Origin: Patescibacteria group bacterium
Lineage (GTDB): Bacteria; Patescibacteriota; Saccharimonadia; CAILAD01; JADZBC01
Assembly (NCBI GenBank): GCA_052034495.1
Contig: JBPOIL010000001.1
Coordinates: forward strand, 14-64,013
DNA length: 64,000 nt
Reading direction: 5' to 3'
The position numbers and the translations under genes were made by a program. Shown here piece by piece: positions 34,541 to 37,819 of the stretch. Each line of letters starts with the position of its first letter. Positions within the stretch are counted from its first letter, which is position 1. The notes under the pieces were generated by a model that was not told the origin of the DNA, made no database searches, and saw only the letters and a program-made list of their open reading frames with translations.

Positions 34541-37500
34541 ATGGCTCAAAACACAGGACGTGACCCAAATCTAGACGAAGGTCAAGCTTACGGCGGGACC
34601 CCCACTCAGCAGAGCGGGGGAACTAGCATGGCGCGTGATATTGCCCAGGCAGGTAAGGATGTTGCAAAAAGTACCGGCAAAAAGTCGCCTGGGAACGAAA
34701 AGCTCCCCGACAGTCCTTATGTAAAAGGTGGCGGTAACGGCGAGGACAGTCTACCGTCGCGTGGTGCCAAAGCTGCTCAAACCATGGCAGGCAAGGGCGG
34801 CACAGACCCTACGACCGGCCAGGCAGGGCGAGCCACCCAGGCGGCCCTAGAGGCAACAGGAACCGCCAAAGATAAGGATGAGCAAGGAGTCGCCGAAAAG
34901 GCCGCCCGTAAAGCTGGTGGTAAAGCTGCTCGCGCAGGAGTAGATGCTTTCACTGGTAGTGATCAGTTGGGGCAAGTTGCGGATCAAGCGGTTCAAAGTA
35001 TTGACCCGAAAAAGGCAGCCAAAAAGGGAGCGAAGGCGGCCGTCGCTACTATAGGTATTGGAATCGCACTGATAGTCACCCCGCTGCTTTTACTACTGTT
35101 AATTATCGGATACGCATTTACCCACCCCTGGGATGCTGCTAAGGAGGTTATTACAAATGCTAGCTACCGACGGTTCGTAGCAAGCGTGGCAGGCTTGGCA
35201 GTTGGCCCAGGAAGCAGCGCGAATTCAATAGCCGCTATTACCGGCCCCATGCCATACGAGGTGGACTATAGACCTGGCTCTGCTATTGCGGCCCCGGCTG
35301 GCCCTAAGCCAGAGCCAGGGACGCTCGAAGATGCCATCTCCAAAATTGACTACGAAAAGTCCAGGAACCGGTTTAAAGGTGACTACTGCGAGTACAGAGT
35401 GATAACCAAGCCAGTGGTGTCCTACGACGGCCAGCGTCGTAACGTCATCAATAAAGTTGTAGATGCAAAAGGTAAGCCCGTAGAGATATCATCCCCCGCC
35501 GTCTACCAGTGTATTCTAGAACAATACCCAGTTATGGAGACCATGATGCGTAGCGAGCAAGCTCGTAAGATTAACAAGCAAATGCAAGTTAACTTCTCCT
35601 ATGCTGAAAAGGAAGATTCTAAGGCTCTTGAAGGCAAATCCAAAGAGGAAGTAAAAGAAGCACTACACAAAAAGTCTCTGACGCGTTTATGGAGCAACTC
35701 GGACAGCCCTTACGGCAATAGTACCGAGTGTGTAGAGGACTTTAAGCCTACAGGCCCCAAGGTGGATAGGGCGATTAAAAAGGTAATCAACAACTTAGCC
35801 TGTGGTGCTCAACCGGAAAAGATCGATGTCGACTACAAGGTAGAGGAAATACCTAAATCACTCGACACCGACTCAGCCAAGTATGAAAAACGACTAGTCG
35901 AATATACCAAGGCCGCTTGTGTTTTCTATAAGAAGCTCAATGAGGACAAGGATGCTATAAAAAAGTATCAGCTAAACCGAGCGAAGTCATCCGCCCGAGC
36001 TGGATTCCAGGCCCTAACCTTGGCTGATACCGGCGTAGCGGGCGAAATATCAACCGAGGAACTTAACGGCGACTTCTATAAAATCTCAAACTTTGCTTCC
36101 TCGAGGGCCTATAAACAAGAGGTGAATGGAAGCTCGGATGGCGTGCAAGTAGACCCAGAGGCTATACCGACCACAGTACTTGGTCTTACGAAGAACTACT
36201 TCGAAGGCCTGGAGGACAATGGTAGAATCAAAGACTCACTCGCTGAAATGTGCAAGGATCAGGACAAAATAGGCGACGGTGGTTTCACTGGTTTCGCAAG
36301 CTTTATAAGTGGCTTGTTTGGCGGGGGTGGGCCATCAAAAGAAGAGCTTGCTAAGGATATTGATGATGCACTTACGTACCTAAAAAAGGACATTCAGAAG
36401 AACAATTCTCAATACTTTACCTCAGCAGAAAAAGTAACCCTAGAAGACATTATCGTACGTACGGTCATGATTACCTCTAACGCCAGTAACAGCGGTGTAG
36501 AAGATGGCCCAGATAACTTTAACCGGATGATAGTAGGTGCGAAAAACTCATCATACATACATACCATGTCGCTCCTAGGTGGTAGCTACCAGACTGAACC
36601 CGAGGCGGCTCAAGCGAGCATCCAAGTTGAACAATACAAGCGACTTCGAGATAAACAGGGTGGTATAGCCTATAGGCTTTGGAATAAGGATAATCCACGC
36701 TCGTTGGCAAGTCGGCTCGCGGCTGAATCCACAGCGACACCTTCGCAGATCACTGAAAAAACTTCACGTTATGCGCTTAATATGCTTAACCCGATTCGGG
36801 CCTTTGCCGAGGTAAACTCTATGATTACCTATGTGGGCTATGGCGAAACTAACCGGGCCATTGCGGCCGCGGACGACGATAGGGCGTACTGGAAGATCGA
36901 CACAGCCGGAGTTCAAGCTACGGAAGATGCTGTGCAGAATGCCCGCTACATCGAGGCGTTAAAGAAGAAGGTCGCGGACCCTGCTTACACTAATGATGAA
37001 ACTATTAAGGCAGTTGCGGCTTCATTTGCAGCGTGGGACAAGTGCATGGATACATACTATCCGGATATGCAGACCCTTGATGATAATAAAGATGACAGAG
37101 CATGTCAGATTATGCGAAAGACCACCGGAAGTAGAGCTATCGCAAGCAACTACGCTGTATCACCCAATAAGTATAAACTCCCTACTGGAAATATCCGCTT
37201 AGCTGCACTTAGCCCAACTTCCGAAAAAGCACTGGCCCGTAAATACGCTGTGTACAAAGGCCATGTAAACTTCTATAGCGCTTGGGCACGGCTTAGCAAG
37301 ACCGAAAAGGATGAAGAAATGTATGCCAATAGTGGACCATCGGATGAATCAAATGGGGCTGCCGACCAGGTTGCTACTGGCAACACGGGACCCAACGGTA
37401 GTGTTAAGTCTGATAAGCCAACGGCTTGTACGAGTGGGCCGCAAGAAGGAACGGTGGAACTATCTAAGTATATAATGAGTAAGTTCGGAGCAAGCAGCAT

Positions 37501-37819
37501 GGGTATATTTAACTGTCGTAGTGTGCGTGGAGGCTCATCCTTAAGTCTGCACGGTGAGGGTAGGGCATTCGATGCAGGACTAAATGCCAACAACCCCGAA
37601 CAAAAGAAACGTGGCGACAGTCTCTTCCAGTGGGTTATTAGTAATGCACCTAGTATTGGGGCTCAGGAGGTAATCTGGAATAGGCAAATCTGGACCCCGA
37701 GCAAGGGTATTCGCGCATACACCGGAACAAGCCCACATACCGACCATGTACACATCGGTCAAAACTGGAGCGGCGCACGAAAGCAAACTCCTTTCTATAC
37801 TTCGGGGACTGGAAGATGA
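34541..37819 (+). CDS. large membrane-anchored protein with C-terminal M15-family (LAS, VanY/DD-carboxypeptidase-like) zinc peptidase domain
   Basis: Disordered Gly/Ala/Lys-rich N-terminus, one TM helix (IGIGIALIVTPLLLLLLIIGYAF), ~850-aa ectodomain. C-terminal SLHGEGRAFDAG ... HTDHVHIG matches the H-x6-D ... D-H-x-H zinc-ligand pattern. Confidence 0.55.
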   Translation: MAQNTGRDPNLDEGQAYGGTPTQQSGGTSMARDIAQAGKDVAKSTGKKSPGNEKLPDSPYVKGGGNGEDSLPSRGAKAAQTMAGKGGTDPTTGQAGRATQAALEATGTAKDKDEQGVAEKAARKAGGKAARAGVDAFTGSDQLGQVADQAVQSIDPKKAAKKGAKAAVATIGIGIALIVTPLLLLLLIIGYAFTHPWDAAKEVITNASYRRFVASVAGLAVGPGSSANSIAAITGPMPYEVDYRPGSAIAAPAGPKPEPGTLEDAISKIDYEKSRNRFKGDYCEYRVITKPVVSYDGQRRNVINKVVDAKGKPVEISSPAVYQCILEQYPVMETMMRSEQARKINKQMQVNFSYAEKEDSKALEGKSKEEVKEALHKKSLTRLWSNSDSPYGNSTECVEDFKPTGPKVDRAIKKVINNLACGAQPEKIDVDYKVEEIPKSLDTDSAKYEKRLVEYTKAACVFYKKLNEDKDAIKKYQLNRAKSSARAGFQALTLADTGVAGEISTEELNGDFYKISNFASSRAYKQEVNGSSDGVQVDPEAIPTTVLGLTKNYFEGLEDNGRIKDSLAEMCKDQDKIGDGGFTGFASFISGLFGGGGPSKEELAKDIDDALTYLKKDIQKNNSQYFTSAEKVTLEDIIVRTVMITSNASNSGVEDGPDNFNRMIVGAKNSSYIHTMSLLGGSYQTEPEAAQASIQVEQYKRLRDKQGGIAYRLWNKDNPRSLASRLAAESTATPSQITEKTSRYALNMLNPIRAFAEVNSMITYVGYGETNRAIAAADDDRAYWKIDTAGVQATEDAVQNARYIEALKKKVADPAYTNDETIKAVAASFAAWDKCMDTYYPDMQTLDDNKDDRACQIMRKTTGSRAIASNYAVSPNKYKLPTGNIRLAALSPTSEKALARKYAVYKGHVNFYSAWARLSKTEKDEEMYANSGPSDESNGAADQVATGNTGPNGSVKSDKPTACTSGPQEGTVELSKYIMSKFGASSMGIFNCRSVRGGSSLSLHGEGRAFDAGLNANNPEQKKRGDSLFQWVISNAPSIGAQEVIWNRQIWTPSKGIRAYTGTSPHTDHVHIGQNWSGARKQTPFYTSGTGR

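Follow-up and report, generated by a model that had tools for sequence, protein, structure and literature searches.

Patescibacteria possess a relaxase-less type IV secretion system (T4SS) that is derived from the MPF-FATA type and encoded close to the replication origin oriC (Quinonero-Coronel et al., 2025). Homologs of a peptidase and of a lysozyme, encoded downstream of virB4, are given as essential for epibiotic growth (PMC12102498; PMC10633639). One described gene at this position is SEML1_0007 from Candidatus Southlakia epibionticum ML1, which comprises 3342 nucleotides (nt), encodes 1113 amino acids (aa) and is located directly downstream of the virB4 gene SEML1_0008 (Wang et al., 2023, PMC10633639, Table S2). 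The published tables list its product as a hypothetical protein with a “Hedgehog/DD-peptidase” at residues 951-1105 as the sole assigned domain, which was recognized by structure, with proteins annotated as M15B and M23 as best structural neighbours; in transposon sequencing (Tn-seq) the gene received the score GD/ES/ES and was scored essential (PMC10633639). The gene family as such has thus already entered the literature, without a name, as a “peptidase homolog” that is essential and belongs to the Saccharibacterial T4SS. A further system of relevance is VldE (Spr1875) from Streptococcus pneumoniae, a clan MD L,D-endopeptidase that cleaves the L-Ala/D-Glu bond in cross-linked stem peptides and for which five structures are available (PDB 9flh, 9flj, 9flk, 9flm, and 9fln). 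Its ion Zn-1 is held by H301, D308, and H375, whereby R294 stabilizes the transition state and H370 is the proposed general base; the exchanges H301A, D308A, and H375A lead to a loss of muralytic activity, and VldE also shows a latent, non-catalytic four-zinc state in which HxDHxH binds the extra zinc ions (PMC11667670). The MT3 motif was defined from the tape measure of mycobacteriophage TM4 (Piuri and Hatfull, 2006, as cited in PMC11667670). PrgK of pCF10 and TraG of pIP501 are VirB1-like proteins that combine a lytic transglycosylase with a CHAP domain (PMC12102498). Here, we analyzed a gene of the T4SS locus from a Patescibacteria group bacterium of the Saccharimonadia (assembly GCA_052034495.1, contig JBPOIL010000001.1), which lies at 34541-37819 in a stretch of 64,000 nt that is referred to as the window.

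The last ~130 aa of the encoded protein are assigned, from sequence comparison and structure prediction, to the LAS (clan MD) zinc peptidases with an H-D-H ligand set, and within these to the VldE/MT3 family (PF26571). This C-terminal peptidase is a swappable cassette, which among the members of the gene family is of the VanY, M74, M23, or VldE type. As far as the searched literature shows, the VldE/MT3 identity, the cassette exchange among four families, the orphan and confidently folded core of 740 aa that carries the cassette, and the hypervariable neighbouring gene are new. The gene resembles SEML1_0007 in its position downstream of virB4 in an oriC-proximal T4SS locus, in the length of its product (1092 versus 1113 aa), in the C-terminal LAS-fold peptidase, and in the multidomain lysozyme/cysteine-peptidase gene that comes after it. 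According to the published tables it differs from SEML1_0007 in that the cassette of the latter is probably not of the VldE type and in that the lysozyme gene there follows without an intervening open reading frame (ORF) for 317 aa. The gene is composed as follows:

34541..37819, plus strand: whole gene for a 1092-aa bitopic T4SS-locus protein, ATG start, stop codon included
34541..35035, plus strand: residues 1-165, Gly/Ala/Lys-rich low-complexity N-terminus, predicted to be cytoplasmic
35036..35116, plus strand: residues 166-192 (approximate), single transmembrane (TM) helix with a Lys-rich flank on its N-terminal side (Kyte-Doolittle maximum of 2.97 over 19 residues)
35117..37345, plus strand: residues 193-935, conserved and mostly alpha-helical core of the ectodomain, with eight Cys that do not vary among close homologs
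37346..37426, plus strand: residues 936-962, linker of ~27 residues rich in Ser, Gly, Thr, and Asn
37427..37774, plus strand: residues 963-1078, predicted LAS zinc-peptidase domain of the VldE/MT3 type (PF26571)
37517-37528, plus strand: conserved arginines R993 and R996, just N-terminal of motif 1
37544..37573, plus strand: motif 1, S1002-L-H1004-G-E-G1007-R-A-F-D1011
37736..37753, plus strand: motif 2, H1066-T-D1068-H1069-V-H1071, which corresponds to H370-x-D372-H373-x-H375 in VldE

An earlier note on this DNA had described an ORF for 1092 aa at 34541-37819 with a Gly/Ala/Lys-rich N-terminus and a single TM helix. The ORF was found exactly as claimed, and composition and hydrophobicity bear out the N-terminal architecture. 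An AGGA sequence, which resembles a Shine-Dalgarno sequence, is located 6-9 nt 5' of the ATG, and this start is credible because the N-terminal peptide is kept at the protein level in homologs. The stop codon overlaps the start of the next ORF in an ATGA at 37816-37819. Residues 1-165 contain 17.6% Ala, 16.4% Gly, and 10.9% Lys, and a semi-conserved stretch, EQG.AEKA.RKA.GKAA, lies immediately N-terminal of the TM helix. This helix (~166-192) is the sole hydrophobic segment of the protein and is preceded by KKAAKKGAK, so that the positive-inside rule predicts an N-in/C-out topology. The ectodomain measures ~900 aa instead of the ~850 aa given before and contains ten Cys residues, eight of which are invariant among 11 close homologs; this Cys content would fit an extracytoplasmic location. 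Within the window no paralogs of either the core or the C-terminal peptidase were found.

In order to classify the C-terminal domain, the last 144 aa were compared to PDB sequences with phmmer. A single protein was matched, the catalytic domain of VldE/Spr1875 (9flh, E=1.5e-4), whereby the Arg, the first His, and the Asp were aligned; the identity to VldE is 24-28%. The VldE zinc ligands H301, D308, and H375 align with H1004, D1011, and H1071, and R996 aligns to R294. In motif 2 of VldE, H370 is the proposed general base, D372 and H373 form the extra zinc site, and H375 is the third zinc ligand. The position that is equivalent to the VldE latency residue E368 is occupied by Ser. In an alignment of the domain with 49 sequences, in which 940 has to be added to obtain the numbering of the full protein, S1002, H1004, G1007, and D1011 are invariant, while R993, H1066, H1069, and H1071 are conserved to at least 90%. 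Due to this conservation of the Ser, His, Gly, and Asp as well as of one Arg and three His residues, the motif match is not a matter of chance, and the zinc-ligand pattern SxHxxGxAxD ... DHxH pointed out before is present and conserved among homologs. When the last 144 aa served as a database query, 52 sequence homologs were obtained, all of which carry PF26571 except for one fragment of 98 aa; most of them are small (130-250 aa), and many also contain PG_binding_1. The precomputed Pfam annotation for exactly this protein is likewise PF26571 “VldE”. An AlphaFold2 model of the domain, built on the 49-sequence alignment, was confident (predicted local distance difference test score 86.9, predicted template modelling score 0.82). 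A Foldseek search of this model against the PDB gave VldE crystal structures as the top five matches (E about 1e-6, probability 1.00, template modelling score 0.72-0.77), followed by the far weaker Hedgehog, LdcB, and MepA. In sequence match, zinc ligands, HxDHxH plus Arg, and the modelled Hedgehog/DD-peptidase fold the domain thus agrees with what characterizes PF26571.

The earlier note had taken the C-terminus for an M15 (LAS) zinc peptidase of the D-Ala-D-Ala carboxypeptidase/VanY kind. The superfamily assignment, the H-D-H ligands, and the conservation of the motif hold, whereas the assignment to the VanY/Peptidase_M15 family does not. A scan of the full protein with a local copy of Pfam-A at E<=1 gave no match, neither to VanY and Peptidase_M15 nor to another model, and the isolated domain at E<=10 gave only a weak match below the cutoff to Extensin-like_C (clan MD, E=0.007). 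Local scans of the protein with NCBIfam and PHROGs yielded nothing significant, the two NCBIfam matches (E=0.055 and 0.6) being at chance level. The local Pfam-A copy matched PF26571 for no query and appears to be without that model, so that the PF26571 call rests on the precomputed matches, the PDB match, and the fold match. Compared to the motif set of the VanY type, the first motif SxHxxGxAxD is present, whereas the second reads HxDHxH and not ExWH as in VanY-type relatives. The solved member of the matched family is an L-Ala/D-Glu L,D-endopeptidase (PMC11667670); by analogy, an endopeptidase rather than a D-Ala-D-Ala carboxypeptidase activity is expected. VldE is the only PDB sequence match and the best fold match, and it shares with the present domain the H-D-H ligands, the conserved Arg, and HxDHxH. 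It differs in its setting, since VldE is a secreted, VicRK-regulated, septal protein of 380 aa consisting of LysM, a disordered linker, and MT3, while here the domain caps a membrane-anchored protein of 1092 aa from a T4SS locus.

The C-terminal domain is exchanged between otherwise alignable proteins. In the set of 11 close homologs, the core can be aligned over its whole length and the C-terminal domain cannot: the window protein is of the VldE type, seven homologs carry VanY, and three carry Peptidase_M74. Over 40 family members we counted 16 VanY, 7 M74, and 6 M23 cassettes, plus two VldE-type members that are not detectable by the local Pfam copy. A zinc-peptidase motif is present at the C-terminus in 35 of 42 full-length proteins (the 11 close homologs and the representatives of at least 758 aa), and the seven without it include four of the five weakest matches. 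On a simple neighbour-joining tree of the cores the cassette types are interleaved. Three types alternate within the clade of the window protein itself (cores 45-78% identical), which implies at least three exchanges, and the type differs even between strains with cores that are 74-78% identical. In the comparison with the closest relative (locus L002), DNA homology runs unbroken from virB4 to nt 37338, stops there, and resumes at 38868. On the protein level, identity is 89% for VirB4, 76% for residues 1-942, 21% for the ORF downstream of the gene, and 80% for the hydrolase that follows, and the C-terminal domain has no significant similarity to its L002 counterpart (E=0.26). The breakpoint is located in the Ser/Gly/Thr-rich linker (936-962), protein homology to L002 ending at residue 942, and the cassette starts at a conserved CTSGPQ.G, which is also the start of stand-alone enzymes. 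The two VldE-type cassettes are 64.6% identical on cores that are only 30% identical, which we considered as proof of a lateral transfer. This was rejected because every cassette type is more conserved than the cores, pairs of VanY-type cassettes reaching 62.8% identity at 20-30% core identity; for the same reason a donor cannot be deduced from identities alone. A joint arrival of the cassette and the downstream ORF from a lineage like that of the other VldE-type member (P0065) is not supported either, as the window ORF is 23.6% identical to the ORF of the P0065 locus and no closer to it than to others.

The part of the protein that carries the cassette is an orphan. A profile of residues 186-940 from ten homologs was run with HMMER against 1.84 billion representative proteins and retrieved 45 core relatives, ~30 of them full length (930-1476 aa). 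No Pfam match was found within the core of any family member, and no relative was found in the PDB or BFVD; the profile comparison with PDB sequences gave only Mcl-1 at chance level (E=0.057). Core homologs were also absent from PLSDB plasmids and, by tblastn, from phage genomes. The core is predicted to be mostly alpha-helical over ~740 aa and to adopt a confident fold, whereby both structural models are predictions and that of the core was built from only 36 sequences. In these 36 sequences, which are ~25% identical overall, the segment S-N-x-S-N-S-G-x-E-x-G-P-x-N-F-N-R (residues 646-663, nt 36476-36529) is invariant or nearly so, and the same holds for R712 and S721 in the segment 712-721 (nt 36674-36703). 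E654, N659, R712, and S721 are polar residues that are invariant throughout the family. The invariant polar residues around SG.E.GP.NFNR suggest a functional site of the core. The sequence ALTLADTG of the core was also considered as a DTG motif of aspartic proteases and rejected; the segment is helical in the model, and its D and G are not conserved family-wide (only two Thr are conserved to at least 90%).

Outside of this family the VldE/MT3 domain occurs in phages and as a stand-alone protein. A tblastn search with the domain against 50,697 phage genomes gave 26 records, which belong to 21 Mycobacterium, one Mycolicibacterium, two Gordonia, and one Arthrobacter phage and to one unclassified phage. 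Among the phage matches listed, 13 of 15 fall within annotated tape-measure genes, and the identity to the tape-measure genes of Mycobacterium and Gordonia phages is 28-34%. The similarity to tape measures consists in an MT3 domain within a long helical protein of a wall-crossing machine. In contrast to the actinophage proteins, the present core is unrelated, the gene is part of a T4SS locus and not of a tail module, and the domain is C-terminal and not internal. That the protein is a phage tape measure was rejected on the basis of the T4SS context and of a core without phage match by tblastn, PHROGs, and BFVD; only the MT3 domain is common to both. The stand-alone homologs include a Nocardioides protein and one on a contig of 72% GC with a FUR-peroxidase gene pair. 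Another one, with 52% identity among the closest, is encoded on the contig of P0016 (L012) next to genes matching V-SNARE_C, OST3_OST6, and thioredoxin, a eukaryote-like context which suggests that the domain family has members outside bacteria and phages as well. The contexts of the nearest stand-alone homologs did not resolve the origin of the cassette, as Actinobacteria-like, phage-like, and eukaryote-like contigs are mixed.

The surrounding genes place the protein in a T4SS locus with the gene order pilins, VirB6, PrgI, TraC-like, VirB4, present gene, 317-aa ORF, hydrolase, Big_5-like 236-aa protein, DciA, recF, dnaN, and dnaA:

26492-28349, minus strand: five tandem, divergent T4SS_pilin (PF18895, VirB2-like) genes, located upstream of VirB6 and oriented away from it
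28439-30658, plus strand: VirB6/TrbL_3
30667-31500, plus strand: PrgI/VirB3
31543-32613, plus strand: TraC-like protein (PF26593) of 356 aa
32613..34505, plus strand: VirB4-type ATPase (TraG P-loop, AAA_10, DUF87), upstream neighbour of the present gene
37816..38769, plus strand: membrane-anchored ORF of 317 aa without family match, downstream neighbour
38766..40514, plus strand: SGNH/Phage_lysozyme2/CHAP cell-wall hydrolase of 582 aa, PrgK/TraG-like VirB1 analogue (Phage_lysozyme2 E=1.6e-34, CHAP E=5.5e-11)
41211-45365, minus strand: DciA, recF, dnaN, and dnaA, directly after the T4SS locus

The adjacency of DciA, recF, dnaN, and dnaA shows that the system lies by the origin of replication, in agreement with published work on Patescibacteria, and the same oriC-adjacent arrangement is present in three related loci (L002, L008, and L009). 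The gene order is common to five other Saccharibacterial loci, one of which has a core that is only 30% identical, and the four loci from species-representative genomes all belong to metagenome-assembled genomes of Candidatus Saccharibacteria/Saccharimonadia. Over five loci the identity is 87-96% for VirB4 and 21-51% for the ORF downstream of the present gene; no other gene of the locus varies as much. When the window ORF is compared with those at its position in related loci, identity is 21-30%, as against 87-91% for VirB4 and 50-84% for the hydrolase. In the window, the Lipase_GDSL_2 match of the hydrolase (31.2 bits) is just below the cutoff. The earlier note was right in counting two separate peptidoglycan-active proteins in the locus, though it had called them adjacent, and the 317-aa ORF (37816-38769) sits between them. 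It had also regarded the present protein as atypical for VirB1-like proteins. This is correct, yet the protein is not a one-off, since a conserved gene of this kind directly follows virB4 in the T4SS loci of Saccharibacteria. What it shares with PrgK and TraG is that an MPF-FATA-type T4SS locus codes for a cell-wall hydrolase. It lacks a glycosidase domain, for which reason it is not a VirB1 protein of the PrgK/TraG type, and instead has the 740-aa orphan core and the LAS metallopeptidase; the role of PrgK/TraG fits the 582-aa neighbour better.

Taken together, we propose that the protein is probably a T4SS-associated component, structural or accessory, of the chromosomal T4SS of this Saccharibacterium which opens peptidoglycan locally. 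One TM helix would anchor it in the cytoplasmic membrane, with the low-complexity tail of ~165 aa on the cytoplasmic side. The orphan helical ectodomain of ~740 aa would serve as a scaffold or stalk that bears the peptidase on the flexible linker of ~27 residues. In the peptidase, one catalytic zinc ion would be held by H1004, D1011, and H1071, whereby H1066 could act as general base and either R993 or R996 could stabilize the transition state. The bond cut by the tethered enzyme would lie in the stem peptide and, in keeping with VldE, would most likely be L-Ala/D-iGlu(Gln). The SGNH-lysozyme-CHAP protein nearby would supply muramidase, CHAP, and probably esterase activity, so that both enzymes, presumably in physical association with the T4SS in the case of the present one, would open the peptidoglycan, be it of the own or of the host wall, for the passage of the T4SS channel or pilus. 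Several points weigh against this proposal. The role is a predicted one, derived from sequences and models, and the local Pfam-A, NCBIfam, and PHROGs scans are without a significant match for the protein. VldE also has a latent multi-zinc state, and by analogy the present domain may be subject to regulation or spend much of its time inactive. Judged by position, size, and domain, SEML1_0007 has its positional and architectural counterpart in this gene, whereby SEML1_0007 was compared through published tables only. Moreover, since Saccharibacteria grow only on hosts, the essentiality scored there by Tn-seq is compatible with a T4SS role and with a general wall role alike.

It is possible, if rather unlikely, that the protein is a tape-measure-like breacher of the host wall, whose tip cuts the peptidoglycan of an actinobacterial host at the contact site so that the T4SS pilus or channel can penetrate, and whose cassette is exchanged to suit host walls. 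The domain is indeed the MT3 motif that is carried within actinophage tape measures, and some stand-alone homologs are from Actinobacteria (Nocardioides; 72% GC contig), on which cultivated Saccharibacteria grow (PMC10633639). The change of cassettes between strains with cores of 74-78% identity and the divergence of the next ORF (21-51%) beside a conserved VirB4 (87-96%) would fit diversifying selection at the host interface. Yet the protein is membrane-anchored in the epibiont, with no release or cleavage signal identified, and its core has no similarity to tape-measure proteins. Swapping could also be neutral if the VanY-family, M74, and VldE-type enzymes were interchangeable cutters of the stem peptide, several of these families being directed at stem peptides or cross-links, and the cassette cannot be traced firmly to Actinobacteria, as close domain relatives are also found on phage-like and eukaryote-like contigs. 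A doubtful further step, which we put forward tentatively, would be that a host-specificity module of the Saccharibacterial T4SS is formed by the cassette jointly with the hypervariable ORF behind it, an orphan stalk with an exchangeable tip that is matched to the peptidoglycan chemotype of the host by recombination among naturally competent Saccharibacteria and breaches the host wall for T4SS or pilus penetration.

Quite improbable, in our view, is a housekeeping enzyme of wall remodelling during growth, division, or budding that merely lies beside T4SS genes near oriC. In its favour, VldE is a housekeeping hydrolase that is induced by stress and located at the septum, Tn-seq essentiality would be expected of a division enzyme, and core genes are frequent near oriC. 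However, the gene strictly keeps its place between virB4 and the second hydrolase even in loci with a core identity of 30%, it shares nucleotides with the ORF that follows, and there are only 45 core representatives, whereby all loci with a named source are from Saccharibacteria carrying this T4SS. Also, one would not expect near-identical strains to differ in the catalytic family of an enzyme that acts on their own, conserved wall. Even less probable, and hardly to be expected, is a non-catalytic LAS fold, either as a zinc-dependent module for peptidoglycan binding or anchoring comparable to the Hedgehog N-domain or as a zinc reservoir, with the helical core as the functional part. The four-zinc state of VldE, whose extended HxDHxH is fully present here, and the fact that conservation within the family resides in the core would agree with it. 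But all residues needed for catalysis are kept in the protein and in its homologs, and the alternative VanY, M74, and M23 cassettes also keep their catalytic motifs, which speaks for a selection of catalysis and not of binding. As for the preferred reading, a local opening of peptidoglycan for the T4SS, its consequence depends on the wall that is cut: a tip acting on the host wall would represent a host-penetration mechanism for epibionts of the candidate phyla radiation, while a tip acting on the epibiont's own wall would be a new type of VirB1 analogue for the T4SSs of monoderms. The gene is among the least understood parts of the T4SS, with only its last 150 residues annotated, and the exchangeable tip, its MT3 relation to actinophages, and the orphan core give experiments a starting point in a system that has become genetically tractable.

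Some further observations concern the locus and the remainder of the window. The array of five pilin genes matches the essential pilin arrays that were reported for Saccharibacteria. The TraC-like protein shows a weak PHROGs match to the terminase large subunit (E=1e-5, residues 52-150) and may be a P-loop-related protein or a split N-terminal module of VirB4. In L009, the VldE-type locus with a core of 30% identity, synteny is kept and a Peptidase_M74 protein of 664 aa (L009 14694-16688, plus strand) takes the place of the SGNH-lysozyme-CHAP enzyme as second hydrolase. The hydrolase of L004 is without CHAP. The second wall enzyme is therefore modular as well. Finally, a stretch of low GC content (37-39% versus ~50% for the window) at 55436-61416 on the plus strand carries genes for the modification of surface glycans and lipids, namely GT2, nucleotidyl transferase, HAD, an LPG_synthase_TM protein of 703 aa, and GtrA, and may represent a horizontally acquired or fast-evolving surface polysaccharide island.

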